From the NCBI RefSeq assembly GCF_030013595.1, contig NZ_CP122768.1: a stretch of 64,000 nucleotides of DNA; one strand, 5' to 3'. Below, in pieces: positions 6,083-42,048 of the stretch. This DNA is from Escherichia coli. GTDB lineage: Bacteria; Pseudomonadota; Gammaproteobacteria; Enterobacterales; Enterobacteriaceae. Positions within the stretch are counted from its first letter, which is position 1, and each line of letters opens with the position of its first letter. A program made the translations under genes and the position numbers. Under the pieces are notes generated by a model. It made no database searches and was not told the origin of the DNA. It was given only the letters and a program-made list of their open reading frames with translations.

Positions 6083-7974
<1,892 letters not shown>

Positions 7975-7988
7975 CTCCGGAAACGCTC

Positions 7989-8657
7989 ATGCAAGAAAGT
8001 ATACAACTGGTTATTGATTCCTTGCCGTTCCTGCTGAAAGGGGCTGGGTATACGCTGCAACTCAGTATCGGCGGCATGTTTTTTGGCTTACTGCTAGGGT
8101 TTATTCTCGCGCTGATGCGCCTTTCACCAATCTGGCCCGTGCGCTGGCTGGCGCGTTTTTATATCTCTATTTTTCGTGGTACGCCACTCATCGCACAACT
8201 GTTTATGATCTATTACGGCTTGCCGCAGTTTGGCATCGAACTAGATCCCATTCCGTCAGCAATGATTGGTCTGTCGCTAAACACTGCCGCCTATGCTGCC
8301 GAAACGCTGCGTGCCGCCATTTCTTCTATTGATAAAGGTCAGTGGGAAGCTGCTGCCAGTATTGGTATGACGCCGTGGCAGACCATGCGTCGCGCGATTT
8401 TGCCACAGGCGGCGCGGGTGGCGTTGCCGCCGCTGTCGAACAGCTTTATCAGCCTGGTAAAAGATACGTCGCTGGCCGCGACAATCCAGGTGCCGGAGCT
8501 GTTCCGTCAGGCGCAGTTGATTACCTCGCGCACGCTGGAAGTGTTCACCATGTACCTGGCGGCTTCGCTCATCTACTGGATCATGGCGACAGTATTATCG
8601 ACGTTGCAGAACCATTTTGAGAATCAACTTAATCGCCAGGAGAGAGAACCAAAATGA
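7989..8657 (+). CDS. tcyL: L-cystine ABC transporter permease
   Basis: 222-aa polar amino-acid ABC permease with multiple hydrophobic segments; synteny (yecS). Confidence 0.85.
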   Translation: MQESIQLVIDSLPFLLKGAGYTLQLSIGGMFFGLLLGFILALMRLSPIWPVRWLARFYISIFRGTPLIAQLFMIYYGLPQFGIELDPIPSAMIGLSLNTAAYAAETLRAAISSIDKGQWEAAASIGMTPWQTMRRAILPQAARVALPPLSNSFISLVKDTSLAATIQVPELFRQAQLITSRTLEVFTMYLAASLIYWIMATVLSTLQNHFENQLNRQEREPK

Positions 8658-14349: not shown

Positions 14350-14425
<76 letters not shown>

Positions 14426-14479
14426 GTTTAAAAGGCATCGGCGTCAAGCGGATGTCTGGCTGAAAGGCCTGAAGAATTT

Positions 14480-14553
14480 GGCGCGTTAACAAAGCGGTTA
14501 TGTAGCGGATTGCAAATCCGTCTAGTCCGGTTCGACTCCGGAACGCGCCTCCA
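14480..14553 (+). tRNA. cysT: tRNA-Cys (GCA)
   Basis: GGCGCGTTAACAAAGCGGTTATGTAGCGGATTGCAAATCCGTCTAGTCCGGTTCGACTCCGGAACGCGCCTCCA read directly. Confidence 0.92.
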
Positions 14554-14565
14554 CTTTCTTCCCGA

Positions 14566-14652
14566 GCCCGGATGGTGGAATCGGTAGACACAAGGGATTT
14601 AAAATCCCTCGGCGTTCGCGCTGTGCGGGTTCAAGTCCCGCTCCGGGTACCA
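14566..14652 (+). tRNA. leuZ: tRNA-Leu (TAA), long-variable-arm type; 3' part lies inside prophage attL
   Basis: GCCCGGATGGTGGAATCGGTAGACACAAGGGATTTAAAATCCC...GGTTCAAGTCCCGCTCCGGGTACCA read directly. Confidence 0.92.
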
Positions 14653-14722
14653 TGGGAAAGATGAGAATAAAATCAAAGCAATAAGCAGTGTCGTGAAACC
14701 ACCTTCGGGTGGTTTTTTTGTG
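14597..14722. repeat. Prophage attL: 126-bp direct repeat (3' 56 nt of tRNA-Leu plus downstream terminator)
   Basis: Same 126 bp at 60374..60499 with one mismatch (gatgaga vs gataaga); flanks differ on both sides. Confidence 0.85.
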
Positions 14723-14782
14723 TCTTCTTTCTCATTTCCGAAGATGCGTCCGAAGATGATTTTTCTCTGGACGCATCATCAT

Positions 14783-15826
14783 TCATTTTCTCTGGCCACC
14801 AACTACGGGCACTACTTTAACTTTTCGGTCATATGCTGCTGTCTGTCGTGGGTTCTTATGCCCGGAAATTGCTTGCTTCTCTTCCAGGCTGCCTTCCAGA
14901 TCAGAGATACCTTTTGCTTTCAGATCATGAAATGTGAAGTCTATTTGCAGATGAGGATATTTTTCCTGTGCTGCCGCTTTGACATCACGCCAACGAGAGT
15001 TAAAACCATCACGGGTGTACTTGCCTCCGGTAGTTTGATGAATCACAAACAGGCTACTGATTCCCGGTTTTAATGGCAGAGAACGAGCCAGAGCTATCGC
15101 TTTCTGCAGACGAGGCGACCAGGCTTTGATTTGCTTAACGCCGGTTTTTCCCTGACGAATGTAGATCCCGGAATCGAACAGCTGGTCTTTCTGTAATGAA
15201 AGTACATCACTCTGTCTGGCCACACATAAGTAGGCAATCTCCATTGCCACGCGAACAACATCAGGAGACACTTCATAAACGGCCTGATATTCTTCATCCG
15301 TAATATAACGTTCGCGTGCTGTCTCTTTAAACTGCTTAACTCCCTGACAAGGATTCCTCTGGACATAACCTCGTTCATAACCCCAACGGAATACCCTGGA
15401 CATAAAGCTTTTTTCCCTATTTGCCTGAGTTCGGCTTGATAAACCGCGTTGATCCATATAGCGCCGAATATGTTCAGGTTTGATTTTATCCGGGTCGATC
15501 TTCCCGAAGACAGGCAGAACTTTTCCGGAATATTTTGTGTAGTCTTTCCTGGTTTCGACTGCCAAATCCATAAAATCAGGGGAGGTCATGAATTGTTCCG
15601 CGAGCGCCTGAAAAGTATTTCTTTCTTTTTCGTCACCGACCGCTTTTTCATATGCCAGCCATACGGCTGATCGTGGCGCATCCAATGCGCACAGGCGTAT
15701 CGCTTTGTTATCTTTATTCCTGAATTCGTAGGCCGCTTTGCCCTGGTAAACACGAGGCGGCATCCAGTTATCTGCTGGGTTCTTTCTCTTTCCGGCCATT
15801 AAATATTGCTCCAAAATCAGGTTCAT
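14783..15826 (-). CDS. int: Prophage tyrosine integrase
   Basis: 347-aa ORF next to attL/tRNA, opposite orientation; C-terminal region (...HDLKAKGISDLEG...SGHKNPRQTAAYDRK) resembles tyrosine-recombinase catalytic region. Confidence 0.85.
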   Translation of the reverse strand: MNLILEQYLMAGKRKNPADNWMPPRVYQGKAAYEFRNKDNKAIRLCALDAPRSAVWLAYEKAVGDEKERNTFQALAEQFMTSPDFMDLAVETRKDYTKYSGKVLPVFGKIDPDKIKPEHIRRYMDQRGLSSRTQANREKSFMSRVFRWGYERGYVQRNPCQGVKQFKETARERYITDEEYQAVYEVSPDVVRVAMEIAYLCVARQSDVLSLQKDQLFDSGIYIRQGKTGVKQIKAWSPRLQKAIALARSLPLKPGISSLFVIHQTTGGKYTRDGFNSRWRDVKAAAQEKYPHLQIDFTFHDLKAKGISDLEGSLEEKQAISGHKNPRQTAAYDRKVKVVPVVGGQRK

Positions 15827-36021: not shown

Positions 36022-36692
36022 TGAGTAACGAGTATTTATTGGAATATACCCGCATAAAACTGCGTGCTGCATTACGGGATTTGTCTGGTGGTTCTAAGGG
36101 GCAACTGGAAGCATTGTGTGAGCACCCGCCAGCAGATAAAAACGCATACCCACGCAAACATATTCATCGTGTGCAACTGGAGGACCGGACCGTTGATGCT
36201 CTGGTTCCGCCAGTTTATGCCCTGGAAAGTTTCAGCAGACGTCGCCCCGCGCCGCCGATGAATGATTTTGAATTCGCTGATTCATCGTGGCGCCGTGCCG
36301 TGAACGCGCTCGACGTTAGCCAGCAGGCGTGGTTGCGCTATTGCTACGGTGGTAACCTGGCGTTCAAACACCAAACAGCTATTTGTGAGGCTGTCTGGAG
36401 TCGCTATAAAGGAAACATCTCTGCGTCAACTCAGAGAAAAGTAGTCAAGCGCCTGCTTTCGTTGGTGTGGTTGTCCGTGCAGGCGGTCGCAGCAGCAAAT
36501 AAACGCGAGGATTTTAAGGAGATGGCCGGATCTGCGCTAGCTGGAATGTTGTCTGTTTCTCGTTCCACCTGGTGCGAAACATACTCCCCGCACTGGGTAG
36601 GAATGAAAGAGGCGGTGAGAGCACTTGATGAAGTGGCACTTTTTGCAACTTTGCATCATTATCAGAACCATTTAGACGACGTTTGCGTATAA
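36021..36692 (+). CDS. Late-gene antiterminator Q-like protein
   Basis: 223-aa ORF directly upstream of a promoter/terminator pair and the lysis cassette. Confidence 0.5.
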   Translation: MSNEYLLEYTRIKLRAALRDLSGGSKGQLEALCEHPPADKNAYPRKHIHRVQLEDRTVDALVPPVYALESFSRRRPAPPMNDFEFADSSWRRAVNALDVSQQAWLRYCYGGNLAFKHQTAICEAVWSRYKGNISASTQRKVVKRLLSLVWLSVQAVAAANKREDFKEMAGSALAGMLSVSRSTWCETYSPHWVGMKEAVRALDEVALFATLHHYQNHLDDVCV

Positions 36693-36760
36693 TGCTTGCA
36701 AAACCGAACAAAATAGGCCATATTTAACGCTAATTTGGTATGTTGCCAAATTTCTAAGAA

Positions 36761-36784
36761 CCTCGCCACGGCGGGGTTTTGTCG
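36761..36784 (+). terminator. tR'-like terminator in late-operon leader
   Basis: cctcgccacggcgggg hairpin plus ttttgtcgttt between the Q-like gene and holin. Confidence 0.5.
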
Positions 36785-36804
36785 TTTCTGAATCAGGAAA
36801 AATC

Positions 36805-37188
36805 ATGTCTGAACCTCTAACCGCTGGCGTTGCTGCTGGCTCGGCGGGGGTGACGTTTGCTGCGTTATTTCCTGAGGCAACACCTGCAGTGATGATCTGT
36901 GCGCTGGCAGGCGCAGCTCTCTATGTGTTGTCATCCGGGCAGCATCGATTCTGGAAGCAGGTTATTTTCGCACTCATTTCGTTTGTTGGCGGTGTGTATT
37001 GCGCTGAGACAGCATCAGCCATCATTACCGGTATTCTGAATGCGGTGCTGAGTCACCTGAACCCTCCCGTAACAGTAAAAGTCTCTCCCGCCATTGGTGC
37101 ACTGGTTGCATCAGTAATCAGCGTTACATCACTGTTGCGGATCATGTCACAAGCTCGTTTATGGAAATCAGATAAGGGGATGAAATAA
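36805..37188 (+). CDS. Putative holin
   Basis: 127-aa membrane protein with several hydrophobic segments, first late gene before endolysin. Confidence 0.5.
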   Translation: MSEPLTAGVAAGSAGVTFAALFPEATPAVMICALAGAALYVLSSGQHRFWKQVIFALISFVGGVYCAETASAIITGILNAVLSHLNPPVTVKVSPAIGALVASVISVTSLLRIMSQARLWKSDKGMK

Positions 37189-37460
37189 TGACCCTGCACT
37201 CTGTCCTCATCAATGCCAATGCAATTATCTGTCTGATGCTGGCACTGCGGTTGATGTTTTTTCAAAAAACAGGCCGCTATCGTTTTTTTATCTCACTAAC
37301 TGCTTACCTGGCGATTCTGTCTGCTGCGTGGATAGCCCTACGAATTTTTTACGGGAAATATACGCAGGTTGATCCCGCAGAGTTCTTTCTCAACCTCACC
37401 ATCTGTATTGCTGTCTGGCGGGCACGAGGAAATATTTCAAAAATAACAGGAGACAGGTAA
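37188..37460 (+). CDS. Putative holin/antiholin-like membrane protein
   Basis: 90-aa hydrophobic ORF between holin and endolysin. Confidence 0.4.
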   Translation: MTLHSVLINANAIICLMLALRLMFFQKTGRYRFFISLTAYLAILSAAWIALRIFYGKYTQVDPAEFFLNLTICIAVWRARGNISKITGDR

Positions 37461-37939
37461 TGACCGATCCTAAATGGCTAATTGAGGCACGAAAAAATCT
37501 CGGCATCCGGGAAATGAAAGGGAAGCAACATGCTGCAGAAATTGTGCAGTACTGGAAAGATATCAAACGCGGCGGTATTAAGGATGACGAAACACCATGG
37601 TGCGCCGCCTTCACCGGAGCAATGCTGGAACGTGTTGGTATTCGCTCAACGCGTTTTGAGTCTGCGAATTCTTATCTCGATTGGGGTAATGAACTGAAGG
37701 AGCCCGCCTATGGATGCATTGCTATTCTGTCTCGGTCTGGCGGTGGCCACGTTGGTTTTGTTGTCGGGAAAAATGCCGCCGGGGATTTAATGATTTTGGG
37801 TGGCAACCAGGCAGACGCAGTGAATATCAAAGCGTTTCCGAGCTCACGCGTTACCGGCTATCGCTGGCCAACAGGTCAAACGGATGTTCCACAATCACTT
37901 CCATTGGTGAATGCTGAGAAATCTATCTCAGAAGCGTAG
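37460..37939 (+). CDS. Putative endolysin (Cys/His peptidase-type cell-wall hydrolase)
   Basis: 159 aa; ETPWCAAF and GGHVGFVVG motifs suggest CHAP/NlpC-like peptidase; position in lysis cassette. Confidence 0.5.
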   Translation: MTDPKWLIEARKNLGIREMKGKQHAAEIVQYWKDIKRGGIKDDETPWCAAFTGAMLERVGIRSTRFESANSYLDWGNELKEPAYGCIAILSRSGGGHVGFVVGKNAAGDLMILGGNQADAVNIKAFPSSRVTGYRWPTGQTDVPQSLPLVNAEKSISEA

Positions 37940-37946
37940 GTAAAAT

Positions 37947-38138
37947 GTGAAAAAACTCCTCTTAGCTGTCGCGTTCTTCACGCTGGCAGGCTGCACACAT
38001 TCGACATACACCGAAGCGACTCGCGCTGACGGCAGCAGCATTAAACACGTGACGATCGCGCCGGGTACGAAGATTACTACTGCGAACGGTGGTTGTATTG
38101 ATTCAACCGGTGTCGTAACGGCTTGTCAGGCAAAGTGA
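37947..38138 (+). CDS. Small lipoprotein (possible outer-membrane spanin component)
   Basis: MKKLLLAVAFFTLAGC lipobox signal; 63 aa; end of lysis cassette. Confidence 0.45.
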   Translation: MKKLLLAVAFFTLAGCTHSTYTEATRADGSSIKHVTIAPGTKITTANGGCIDSTGVVTACQAK

Positions 38139-38239
38139 TTGTAACTTGCTGTTTTCGGTATTAAGTACCTTGAATTAGGTTTACGAGTTGGCATTATAGA
38201 AAAACTATATGGTTCACTAATGTGACATAAGGAAATATT

Positions 38240-38488
38240 ATGCCTAAGTTAAAACTTGTTAAGACATTGCTATTGCCAGGTAATAATAAGTATGAGATTT
38301 ATGCAAGAAATGAATATAGCAACGTAGAACAAATTATTCACTATAAACTGCGCTCTTGTAAGAACGAGCAAGGCCAGGATGGAATGTCTGAGGCGCAATG
38401 GGTTATTTATGATCCATTGTTTCCATTACCAGATGACCGCAATTATGCAAGTGTATCAAATATAGACGACTATCTGGTCGATTGCTAA
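38240..38488 (+). CDS. Hypothetical moron protein (82 aa)
   Basis: AT-rich; RBS aaggaa; terminator directly downstream. Confidence 0.4.
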   Translation: MPKLKLVKTLLLPGNNKYEIYARNEYSNVEQIIHYKLRSCKNEQGQDGMSEAQWVIYDPLFPLPDDRNYASVSNIDDYLVDC

Positions 38489-38496
38489 GTGAAATC

Positions 38497-38518
38497 AAAC
38501 CGCCTATGGGCGGTTTTT
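38497..38518. terminator. Bidirectional terminator between convergent moron genes
   Basis: aaaccgcctatgggcggttt with A/T runs on both sides. Confidence 0.55.
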
Positions 38519-38561
38519 ATTGCCATCACCATGGGAAGACATATAGTAATGGCATTTATCA

Positions 38562-39032
38562 TTATTCTTTGACGATAATGCTCGACTCTGCTGCTTCGCT
38601 ATCTTTCTTGGCAGAAAGCTCAGCTTTCAACTTCGAAAGGAGAGATGCTTCCATTGCATTAAGTATTGATTCGGTTTCAGAGTTAAATCCAGTGAATTTG
38701 ATAATGCGTTTCGTAACTTTTCCTTTTTCAGCGCTTGCTGCCAGACCGACATCGGTAGCGCTAACTTTCGCGCCTACGTCGCCCTTCAGCGAGTTGCCGT
38801 AATATTCTTCTATTTCGACAGTTTCAGAGATTAAAGTGCGTCTGGCGATGGCAAGTTCTTGCTCGATTTTTGAATAGGAATGTAGAGCCTCAGCTGTAAT
38901 CTCCTCGCTCTCTACTGGGAATGTAGGATTTCTGGTATCGCGAACACTAATATCTCTAACGTCAAAACCAATAATATTCGAGGTAGCAGTTGTTGCTGCG
39001 AGTTTGAGTATTGTCAAAACCAGTTCATTCAT
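38562..39032 (-). CDS. Hypothetical moron protein (156 aa)
   Basis: Minus-strand ORF with GGAGG RBS, convergent with 38240..38488. Confidence 0.4.
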   Translation of the reverse strand: MNELVLTILKLAATTATSNIIGFDVRDISVRDTRNPTFPVESEEITAEALHSYSKIEQELAIARRTLISETVEIEEYYGNSLKGDVGAKVSATDVGLAASAEKGKVTKRIIKFTGFNSETESILNAMEASLLSKLKAELSAKKDSEAAESSIIVKE

Positions 39033-39632
39033 TTTTAGCCTCCAGAGAATTGATTTAAGAATAACAAGTTAATGAAAAATTCCAAATGGCAAACCGGGAC
39101 TGGGCTTGAGCTTCAGAAGCGGTTCCTGTCCGAGTACGTCAAATCATGTGTATCACCGAAAGAATGGTGTGACGCGCAGGGACTGAGCTTCGCAACAGCT
39201 CGCCGACGTATAAAAAACAACTGCGCAATGTGCCAAAGAGCTGGTGGCTGATGAAAGAGACGTTTTACTTAAACGAGAGGCCGCCTTTTTTGTTTCAAGG
39301 CGGCACACATTCAACAGATTAAGGTAACCGATTTGACCATTTAGTTGCGCGCCAGTTGTTCTGAACCATAATCACCTGAAGTATCTCATCTGAAGGCTCC
39401 GCTTCGCGGCGTAAACATTCTCTTAAAGTTGAACAATGTAGATAAGAGGAGCTCGCACGAGTTTGATAGACCTGATGCGAGCCCCCGATTCCTGTCCTGA
39501 AAGGGAGATAGCCCCCCTGGTCGCGGGTCCTTTCCGAAATCCAAAACACCGAGGGTCGGTAGACGCGCAAAAACTCACTCGTTTTTAGTATTTTTTCATT
39601 TTGGGTATTTCCGGTTCCGGTGAGGATTTTTA

Positions 39633-40199
39633 ATGGCAAGTCAGGCTGAGGTCGCAGCACATTTACTGCTATCTGATCGTCGTCTGCGCGATCTTGCAAA
39701 ACTTCCGGGAGCTCCAGTCCCCCAAGGACGTGGCGATTGGGAACTTGACGCATGGCGCCATTTTTATATTCGTTATCTCCGGAGCAATAGACGCGACACA
39801 ACTAGTAATGACGAACCGGAAGCGGGGGACAATTCTCCCGAAAAAAATCGCGAGCAGTGGTTGAAAAATGAGGAACGGCAGGAGCGAATCCTGATGGCTC
39901 GCGTGAAACGCCGCATTCTTGCTAAACGCTACGCGCCAATTGAATTAATCAGCGTAGCTGTATCTCGCGTCGCAGTTGAATTACGTACCCGTGTCGAATC
40001 GTGGCCACCACGGTTAAAAAAGGTGTGGCCGGAAATGCCGCAGGAGGCGAGCAGTGTATTACGAGAGGAGCTGGCAATAGCCCTGAATGAACTGGCAGAC
40101 ATACGAATCGACTTCAGCGATTACGATGTCAGCGATATCGAACGCGATCTCGACAGGGTTGAATCCCTTGCGCGTGACGATACCGATGACGGGGGTTGA
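39633..40199 (+). CDS. Terminase small subunit (Nu1-like)
   Basis: 188-aa ORF immediately upstream of and overlapping the large terminase. Confidence 0.5.
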   Translation: MASQAEVAAHLLLSDRRLRDLAKLPGAPVPQGRGDWELDAWRHFYIRYLRSNRRDTTSNDEPEAGDNSPEKNREQWLKNEERQERILMARVKRRILAKRYAPIELISVAVSRVAVELRTRVESWPPRLKKVWPEMPQEASSVLREELAIALNELADIRIDFSDYDVSDIERDLDRVESLARDDTDDGG

Positions 40200-42048
40200 G
40201 TGGGCTGATAAACATTTTTATCTTCCCGAAGGCTCAAGCCATATTGCTGGCCACTGGACGACTCAGCCGGTCCAGGTAGTGATGTTAAATATGATGACGA
40301 ACGACGCGATAAAAATCGTGTCTGTTCGCAAATCAGCTCGTCTCGGTTATACAAAAATACTCGTCGCGGCGCTGCTCTATTTCGCTGAGCACAAAAAACG
40401 TAGTGCCGTGGTCTATCAGCCTATCGATGACGAATCGGATGGATTTGTCGCCGACGAGGTTGACCCCGCTATCGCCGAAATGCCGGTGATTCAGAAAATT
40501 TTCCCCGACTGGGATAAAAGCAACGAGCGTAACAATCTCCAGCGTAAAGAGATGAACGGGGCGATTATCGATTTTCGTGGCGCGAGTGCACCAGGAAATT
40601 TCCGGCGACTGACGAAACAGGTTGTCGAGGGTGACGAAGTCGACGGCTGGCCGCTGGAGGTTGCAAAAAAAGGCAAGGGCGAGGGCTCGCCCATCGAGCT
40701 GGCGCTCGTTCGAATTAAAGGTGCAGCGTACCCAAAAGCAATTTTCGGTTCGACGCCGACCGTTACCGGCAAAAGCCATATAGAAATGTTGGAAGACGCG
40801 GCTGATCTGACGTTTCGTTTTTACCTGAAGTGTCCGCATTGTGGCGAGGAGCAGGTCCTGGTATTTGGTTTCGACGGTATCGAATACGGTCTCAAGTGGG
40901 ATGACAGCCTGCAGACCAACGAGTCGAAATCGTCGTCCGCGTATTACCAGTGCTGCCACTGCCCGGAGCATTTTTACTATCGCGATCTCGAAAAAATGGA
41001 GCTCGCGGGGCGCTGGATAGCAGAGGACTGCACCTAGACGCGGGACGGCATTCATTTTTTTGATCACGACGGTGGTGTCGTTCGCGCGCCGAAACACGCG
41101 GCGATCGTGATAAACGCCCTGTATTCACTGAATCTCGACGGCTGGGGCGAGATTGTCAGCGAGTGGCTGAAAGCGAAAGGCGACCCACTCAAAGAAAAAA
41201 CGTTTCATAACACGACGCTCGGCGAGCTCTGGAGCGACGTGGCCAGCGAGCAGCTGGAGCACGATATTCTCGTTAATCGCCGGGAAAAATACGCCAGCCA
41301 GGTTCCTGACGGTGTTGTTTATATAACCGGCGGCATCGACTCTCAGACGTCCGGGCGCTACGAGTGTTACGTGTGGGGCTGGGGATCTGAGGAGGAGTGT
41401 TGGCTGATTGATAAAACAATCGTCCTCGGTCGCTACGACGAGGAGGACACGCTGCAGCGCGTCGACGGAGTGATTCGTAAACAATACCAGCGCAGCGACG
41501 GGACCACAATCGGCGTCAGTCGTTGGGCGTGGGATACCGGTGGTATAGACGCGCAGGTCGTTTATAACCGCTCGCTCAAACTCGGTCCGCTGTGGGTCAT
41601 TCCGATCAAAGGCGCGAGCTCATACGGCCAGCCGGTCGTAAATATGCCGCGTACCCGTAACGCGAATAAAGTTTATTTATCGTTAATCGGTACTGATACG
41701 GCAAAAGATTTGCTCGCGATGCGTCTGCCGCTGGAACCCGACCCTAAATCGGCGACACCGGGCGCAATTCATTTTCCCAACGACGATGAAATATTCGGCA
41801 CGACAGAGGCAAAACAGCTCGTCTCCGAAGTTCTGATCCCAAAACTCATTAACGGTCGCGTCGTTTATCGCTGGGACAATCAGGGCCGGCGAAATGAAGC
41901 GCTCGACTGCTGGGTGTACGGACTGGCGGCGCTGCGTATCAGTAAAATTCGTTTTCAGCTCAATCTCGAGACGCTCGCTGAGCAACGGAAAAAATCACAA
42001 AACAAACTGTCTCTCGAGGAGATGGCCAGAATGCTCGGAGGGAGCTAA
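40186..42048 (+). pseudogene. Terminase large subunit (lambda gpA-like) with in-frame amber codon at 41035..41037
   Basis: VEWADKHFYLPE..., CPHCGEEQ, ...TRDG..., GIDSQ, WGWG, NEALDC all align to lambda gpA as I recall it; TAG sits where gpA has Trp (IW-TRDG); reading continues in same frame; start ambiguous (40087 or 40186). Confidence 0.75.

Follow-up and report, generated by a model that had tools for sequence, protein, structure and literature searches.

Between the lysis genes and the small terminase gene of a lambdoid prophage, a 64,000-nucleotide stretch of the Escherichia coli chromosome (assembly GCF_030013595.1, contig NZ_CP122768.1; hereafter the window) carries two convergent genes, orf82 and orf156. 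These are two independent single-gene modules joined tail-to-tail at a conserved bidirectional terminator. We are highly confident of this anatomy, which comprises two independent morons, a terminator junction and a relic of a foreign small terminase gene (terS). Regarding function, our best guess is that orf156 encodes a lysogen-expressed, membrane-associated protein acting against incoming phages. The statement as a whole, combining the two-module anatomy with the inferred defense function, is assigned a probability of about 0.4.

The genes preceding the pair follow the order NinB-like, YbcO-like and Q genes, two holins (PF16931 and PF05449), an endolysin (TIGR02594/CHAP) and a lipoprotein of 63 amino acids (aa). 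The slot then contains, after the lipoprotein gene, orf82 on the plus strand, a hairpin, orf156 on the minus strand, the terS relic and a truncated antisense gene. Downstream of the relics lie the genuine small terminase (PHROG 57), a gpA-type large terminase (TerL), gpW and the portal gene. Over positions 37900-39700, the sequence is 100% identical to that of two pig isolates and approximately 98% identical to those of E24377A and SE11. orf82 (38240-38488, plus strand, ATG start) encodes a small soluble protein of 82 aa, and orf156 (38562-39032, minus strand, ATG start) a protein of 156 aa. An earlier interpretation made from the letters alone, here termed the sequence-only reading, had located both open reading frames (ORFs) at these positions behind good ribosome-binding sites (RBSs), as we also find: AAGGA (38229-38233, read from the sequence) ends 6 nucleotides (nt) ahead of the orf82 ATG, and GGAGG (39039-39043) lies 6 nt before that of orf156. 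It had further oriented the genes against the surrounding late operon, which is correct for the antisense orf156 and incorrect for orf82, which is co-oriented with the late genes. The AT-rich patch that it described between the lysis genes and terminase was recovered by both the GC dips and the flanking gene families. The composition of this patch is atypical relative to the surrounding prophage genes, with a GC content of 0.35-0.36 across 38050-38500 and 0.43-0.45 across orf156, against a window average of 0.485. A search of Rfam over 36500-40300 at E-values up to 1 returned no match.

The junction of the two modules is formed by a hairpin, AAACCGCC-TATG-GGCGGTTT (38497-38516), which sits between an A-tract and a T-tract and forms a bidirectional intrinsic terminator, in agreement with the shared terminator previously proposed between the genes. 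The terminator scan called this hairpin on the minus strand and made no plus-strand call; its plus-strand tail, read by eye, is TTTTTATT. Folding of the minus-strand 3' region yielded two hairpins (z = -3.9), the second of which, GCCATTAC...GTGATGGC (38521-38554, minus strand), lies in the 3' untranslated region of orf156 and is kept after orf156 relatives in five other loci (L009, L018, L027, L028 and L030). A hairpin of the form AAAAACCGCC-loop-GGCGGTT, preceded by GGCAAT, is located 3' of orf156 relatives in Citrobacter, Klebsiella, Enterobacter, Yersinia and the IMG/VR locus L030. On the opposite strand, the same hairpin closes orf82 in Salmonella. Across genera the stems are kept and the loops vary, and a block of approximately 28 nt is identical between the orf82 flank of Salmonella and the orf156 flank of Citrobacter. 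The shared bidirectional terminator is real, conserved and situated at the boundary of the two modules. That one short terminator (the GGCAATAAAAAACCGCC-loop-GGCGGTT boundary) closes two unrelated modules in several genera, exactly at their junction, concretely illustrates how lambdoid mosaics can be joined by recombination at a conserved boundary sequence.

The two genes have separate histories outside E. coli, where they were never found together in the loci examined, and their description as a pair consequently fails. The orf82 family comprises 6 clusters restricted to Escherichia and Salmonella, with 72-98% identity among E. coli, E. albertii and Salmonella. In four Salmonella prophage loci representing three different packaging modules, orf82 is always preceded by a lipoprotein gene and co-oriented with the late genes, and orf156 is absent from all four. 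The lipoprotein copies in these loci are 75-78% identical to that of the window, such that orf82 travels with the lipoprotein. In all 12 loci from Klebsiella, Citrobacter, Yersinia and Enterobacter, a relative of orf156 is positioned between the lysis cassette and terminase, antisense to the late genes, and tblastn detected no orf82 in these loci. Most IMG/VR loci likewise contain the relative antisense to the late genes, and even distant phage relatives retain the gene between the lysis and packaging functions. Among 5426 complete E. coli genomes surveyed, 443 contained the flanking backbone and 8 of these carried the cargo, with orf82 and orf156 present in exactly the same 8 genomes and always adjacent. 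Because the genes are separate in other genera, their linkage in E. coli is best read as one recent joining event.

The site itself is a variable accessory (moron) slot of the lambdoid prophage, and the filling described here is rare. An empty state of 983 bp was found in 57 of 60 genomes taken as an evenly spaced sample of the 443; in this state, represented by YZMc3-1-type prophages, the lipoprotein gene directly abuts the backbone antisense gene. A third configuration, the RM10042 type, contains a different antisense ORF of 97 aa followed by the same terS relic. Since both empty and alternative-cargo configurations exist in the same prophage, the locus conforms to the comparative definition of a moron slot, and the sequence-only reading was right to call it a moron insertion site. 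The cargo is inserted between genes that are adjacent in close relatives, has its own terminator in the hairpin at 38497-38516, which is conserved in other genera, and deviates in base composition (GC content of 0.365 for orf82 and 0.427 for orf156, compared with 0.485 for the window). The locus is thus an ordinary moron slot, and the apparent pair a recombination accident. The RM10042 cargo (L003 3156-3449, 97 aa) resembles the Lar restriction-alleviation family, with a match (E = 1.4e-5) whose 25.7 bits fall below the cut-off of 28.6. In a Klebsiella prophage, a gene of the Acb2/Tad1-hairpin type, an anti-CBASS/anti-Thoeris sponge type (L005 8847-9131), occupies the same lysis-to-terminase gap as an orf156 relative. 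The gap collects candidate defense and anti-defense genes alike.

The origin of the orf156 module is evident from the sequence upstream of it. A relic covering the first ~59 codons of a foreign Terminase_2-type terS (39072-39251, plus strand) matches PHROG 51 and 32222 over the N-terminal part only and is annotated by PGAP as a frameshifted, incomplete pseudogene. Relatives of orf156 lie approximately 60-75 nt from the start of a divergent Terminase_2-type terS, and in one locus (L027) a full-length Terminase_2 gene of 330 aa occupies the divergent position of the relic. The native place of orf156 is accordingly immediately upstream of, and divergent from, a terS of this type. Because the relatives adjoin a divergent terS and the window keeps the first 59 codons, orf156 came as a block with the start of the foreign gene, by recombination from a phage with a Terminase_2-type terS. 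No attC site is present at the window copy, and the exact orf156 sequence was found on 809 contigs. Beyond the terS relic lies the 3' relic of an antisense backbone gene of 81 aa (39319-39465, minus strand), recognized by alignment with E24377A and its annotation; relative to E24377A, a 304-bp deletion has removed the 5' half and the upstream region of this gene.

The sequence-only reading had regarded both genes as orphans. This status was lifted by a match of orf82 to PHROG 16949 and by an orf156 family of at least 305 clusters at 50% identity, and homology searches establish both ORFs as real genes (PHROG match with E = 5.9e-49; 36 orf156 clusters at 90% identity). The profile search returned 305 representatives at 50% clustering, 256 of them with E-values below 1e-10. 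A scan of one genome per species identified 52 orf156 loci spanning Gamma-, Beta- and Alphaproteobacteria, Campylobacterota, Desulfobacterota, Cyanobacteria, Bacteroidota, Chlorobi and Firmicutes, together with one Lokiarchaeota metagenome-assembled genome (MAG). orf156 has no match in Pfam, NCBIfam, PHROGs, PADLOC or PDB sequences, and PDB sequence profiles of the orf82 and orf156 families likewise returned nothing. Searches with tblastn of both genes against 50,697 GenBank phage records gave no match, nor did comparison of the terS relic, orf82 and orf156 with PADLOC-DB 2.0 at E-values up to 1. A literature search retrieved no paper naming the RefSeq accessions.

Members of the orf156 family share a conserved core of approximately 70 residues, QAKVAQELAIAxRI..AEEVEIEEYYD.SG.G..G.........LG.SG.G..VTKRIYRFKG, which includes invariant residues; invariant positions of the protein are Q58, E59, R65, E73-E76, R109 and F113. 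The predicted layout consists of an N-terminal hydrophobic helix, a variable linker, a core formed by a conserved helix and a four-stranded beta-meander, and a C-terminal helix. AlphaFold2 modeling based on an alignment of 108 sequences reached a mean pLDDT of 81.7, with values above 90 for the helix at residues 47-68 and for the first and last strands, and block means of 70-79 over residues 81-110; an alignment of 27 sequences gave a poor model (pLDDT 55.8). The hydrophobic N-terminal segment extends over approximately 50-60 residues before the core. Among 181 relatives, its hydropathy reaches a transmembrane (TM)-like level in 25 and an intermediate level in a further 88, and a Xanthomonas member has a clear TM stretch. 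Neither a lipobox nor a signal peptide was found in orf156, and orf82 also lacks a lipobox. Weak recurrent structure matches to the stem hairpins of beta-pore-forming toxins (E = 1-3) were dismissed as noise. The idea that the Gly-rich hairpin inserts into membranes, based on its alternating hydrophobic pattern, was dropped because a sheet packed against a helix would show the same alternation just as readily.

Outside prophages, some orf156 relatives are genuine single-gene integron cassettes, bounded by attC sites and located near an IntI-type integrase. In Stenotrophomonas humi (L054), an array of 14 attC sites contains the relative, which is bounded by the copies at 7715-7788 and 8207-8326, and an IntI-type integrase (PF00589 and PF13495) is encoded upstream. 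In Pseudomonas sp. (L066) it is located within an array of 16 attC sites, and in Xanthomonas (L050) it is the first ORF after an IntI-type integrase, with a GTTAGGC core site before it; repeated attC-like sites also occur in Arcobacter, Aliivibrio and Comamonas loci. The arrays of L054 (6570-12171) and L066 (529-8891), both chromosomal, contain many other small cassettes of approximately 100-190 aa, four of which were scanned and gave no Pfam match. Clustering of 787 neighbor proteins from the 52 genome loci revealed no conserved partner gene, and only integrases and generic ABC ATPases were recurrent. Because these loci share no conserved neighbor, orf156 works alone. Two relatives, from Stenotrophomonas maltophilia and Shewanella, are situated directly downstream of Gabija GajB (best E = 9e-257). 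A metagenomic member, P0174, carries an N-terminal TIR_2 domain (E = 4e-24) fused to the orf156-type module, with a second TIR gene ahead; all that this fusion demonstrates is that coupling of the module to a defense-type domain is possible. Side by side with orf156 relatives, a DUF2441 gene was observed in two unrelated settings, an Enterobacter prophage (L018 6516-7124) and a metagenomic contig (L024 66-602), and a 75-aa gene lies upstream of relatives in Klebsiella and Yersinia; neither gene has a counterpart in the window, and the 75-aa gene has none in E. coli.

Upstream of orf156, the RBS and a promoter-like element occupy 39039-39085 on the minus strand. The element consists of an extended -10 (TGT-TATTCT, 39058-39066) and a -35 (TTGGAA, 39080-39085) separated by a 16-nt spacer. 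The extended -10 reads TGTTATTCT in the window and TGTTATGCT in relatives, the block is kept in seven loci including Klebsiella, Citrobacter and Enterobacter, and different genera share the 60-nt spacer that precedes orf156. Given this conserved extended -10 element, expression of orf156 in the lysogen is plausible. In lambda, the Q-modified late transcript overrides the terminator and runs antisense across bor. By the proposed mechanism, orf156 would be transcribed in the lysogen from its own weak extended -10 promoter, with transcription stopping at the hairpin. In the lytic cycle, Q-antiterminated late transcription would pass through the hairpin and continue across orf156 on the opposite strand, which would silence it. 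The product may associate with the inner membrane via its N-terminal hydrophobic helix, and its most probable role would be to protect the lysogen from other phages by exclusion or abortive infection.

We favor the anti-phage reading because of the prophage and integron carriers, the stand-alone nature of the gene, its patchy spread across phyla, and the associations with TIR and Gabija. A broader proposal, that the family constitutes an unrecognized single-protein, membrane-associated anti-phage system spread as prophage moron and integron cassette, with the core as a sensor or effector module that can be wired to TIR, is put forward only tentatively, being less probable than not by a clear distance. 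If orf156 is a defense gene, the system would be compact and widespread, and prophage morons and integron cassettes would form one shared gene pool. In any case, orf156 offers a handle on a large unannotated family that moves between prophages and integrons and has a predicted fold without a known neighbor.

Several observations weigh against the defense function, the case for which is weak in important ways. The promoter-like site scores 8/12, below the scan threshold, and hence received no scan call, and the RBS and start of the divergent terS account for part of the conservation of the upstream block. The 304-bp deletion presumably took the promoter of the 81-aa gene, which might otherwise feed orf156, and any read-through from that gene into orf156 was lost with it. 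Antisense placement is not a rule of the family, since in five low-GC phage loci the relative is co-oriented with the late operon, directly after Rz. Defense genes adjoin orf156 relatives in only 2 of the 52 genome loci, most neighbors being housekeeping genes, and enrichment in defense islands is therefore not supported. The TIR fusion is known from a single metagenomic representative, and none was present among the 120 best matches of a second profile search. The missing PADLOC match also counts against orf156 as a defense gene. The N-terminal helix of the window protein has a hydropathy of 1.42, an intermediate value below a confident TM call. Structure searches, which the sequence-only reading had named as a check, revealed no informative neighbor of the confidently predicted fold.

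Other explanations were weighed against the two-module anatomy and the anti-phage reading. If the convergent genes were one functional two-gene system, such as a toxin-antitoxin or sensor-effector pair acquired and acting together, their constant adjacency in the same 8 E. coli genomes and their common terminator would be readily explained. The gene distributions largely refute this explanation, which we regard as highly improbable. Co-occurrence across lineages was not observed: Salmonella has the lipoprotein and orf82 without orf156, and orf156 relatives occur without orf82 in Klebsiella, Citrobacter, Yersinia, Enterobacter and approximately 50 genome loci, in some cases as a single-gene integron cassette. 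The families differ in size (6 orf82 clusters against at least 305 of orf156), joint occurrence is confined to E. coli-type loci at no less than 98% identity, and the co-occurrence within E. coli, at no less than 99.7% identity, points to a single recent event. There is similarly little to recommend the view that one or both ORFs are decaying, functionless relics of a defective prophage. TerL carries an amber codon here and an insertion sequence (IS) in an otherwise identical pig strain, a terS fragment and a truncated 81-aa gene lie nearby, and the substitutions in orf82 indicate mild constraint only (9-10 synonymous and 12 non-synonymous codons). Against decay, neither ORF is disrupted or varies appreciably among the 8 genomes, both retain strong RBSs, the identical orf156 sequence recurs on the 809 contigs, and members from different phyla share the orf156 core and its invariant residues.

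Two further explanations concern the function of orf156 itself. A lysogenic-conversion or host-fitness role unrelated to phages, in the envelope, stress or host interaction and comparable to that of lambda bor, is doubtful when taken on its own, and nearly as likely as the anti-phage reading. The slot and antisense orientation are those of bor, as known from textbook accounts of lambda, the N-terminus would associate with membranes, many relatives are chromosomal singletons among housekeeping genes, and integron cassettes also bring many non-defense adaptive genes. The absence from orf156 of a lipobox, a signal peptide and any Pfam match, including one to the Bor family, argues in the other direction, as does a range from Firmicutes to Cyanobacteria plus an archaeal MAG, which speaks against a niche-specific virulence role; the TIR fusion and Gabija adjacency suit defense better. 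It is unlikely that orf156 serves the phage itself, whether as a membrane-acting modulator of lysis timing or of lysis-stage superinfection, or as an anti-defense protein. Such a role would fit its constant position beside the lysis cassette, the co-orientation right after Rz in five low-GC phages, the Acb2/Tad1-type anti-defense gene in the same gap of Klebsiella relatives and the sub-threshold Lar match of the alternative E. coli cargo. It is difficult to reconcile with the antisense orientation in most enterobacterial prophages, which would silence orf156 exactly when the lysis genes are on, with integron-cassette and chromosomal singleton copies far from phage genes, and with the TIR-domain fusion.

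In contrast to orf156, orf82 has no convincing promoter of its own, as judged from the promoter scan and from comparison of the region between the lipoprotein gene and orf82 (38139-38239, plus strand) with Salmonella, to which it is approximately 88-90% identical. Apart from the orf82 RBS, this region contains weak promoter-like matches only, and a scan match at 38213-38241 was rejected because it overlaps the RBS and ATG. The simplest reading would place orf82 on the Q-modified late transcript, as an accessory gene that is most likely transcribed late and linked to the lipoprotein. The match to PHROG 16949 is full-length (residues 1-82 against profile positions 1-82 of 83), and this family, being without an assigned function, names orf82 and does not explain it. 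No Pfam, NCBIfam, PADLOC or PDB match was obtained for orf82, and the codon changes counted above refer to its comparison with Salmonella. The adjoining 63-aa lipoprotein gene (37947-38138, plus strand), an ORF with the lipobox LAGC, is a backbone gene of the prophage that every E. coli configuration contains. Family searches with it returned nothing beyond signal-peptide-level matches. The protein carries two extra cysteines, and the lysis cassette (36805-38138), with its two holins and TIGR02594/CHAP endolysin, contains no Rz/Rz1 or recognizable spanin; the lipoprotein may stand in for a spanin or act in exclusion.

Elsewhere in the window, a cluster of tRNA-Gly, tRNA-Cys and tRNA-Leu genes (14350-14652) precedes a minus-strand ORF (14783-15826) that, at 347 aa, has the length of an integrase, and this region (14350-15826) is probably an attachment end of the prophage. 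The terL gene (40087-42048) is interrupted by an in-frame amber codon at 41035-41037, which is TAG here and TGG (Trp) in the IMG/VR relative L025. Comparison with L025 revealed zero indels over 2.7 kb, and a frameshift in terL was rejected in favor of this in-frame change. In the pig strain that is otherwise 100% identical over 37900-39700, terL contains an ISVsa5 insertion. The prophage lineage appears to have been repeatedly inactivated in packaging, with the cargo retained.

Compared with known systems, orf156 shares features with several classes of mobile-element genes. At least one-third of the mobile-integron cassettes with no known function that were screened in the BRiCs preprint reportedly confer phage resistance, and approximately one-third of BRiCs have TM helices (doi 10.1101/2024.07.02.601719). 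The orf156 relatives are likewise stand-alone genes of mobile elements with an N-terminal hydrophobic segment. Similar to the single-protein defenses of prophages BstA (PMC8585504) and HepS (PMC13043305), orf156 is small, stand-alone and mobile-borne. It differs from BRiCs, BstA and HepS in having no PADLOC match or recognizable enzymatic domain, and its defense role is a candidate one. The motifs of the family were absent from the supplementary sequences of two integron-cassette papers, and GiPD474 and HepS are unrelated, being an ATPase and a HEPN nuclease. With regard to TIR-domain defense proteins such as those resembling Thoeris ThsB, P0174 alone carries a TIR domain, which is lacking in the window protein and nearly all relatives. 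The closest parallel in genomic position is provided by lambda bor and the lambdoid morons of the Hendrix/Juhala concept, which occupy the same slot after the lysis and before the packaging genes. The cargo shares with lambdoid morons an atypical composition, a private terminator and presence/absence polymorphism between near-identical prophages, and orf156 shares with bor the orientation antisense to the late operon. Neither orf156 nor orf82 belongs to the Bor/Iss lipoproteins, both being without a lipobox and without a Pfam match at E-values up to 1, noise aside. The arrangement also differs from that of bor in that two morons of different origin are joined here, one of which, orf156, is a candidate for expression in the lysogen.

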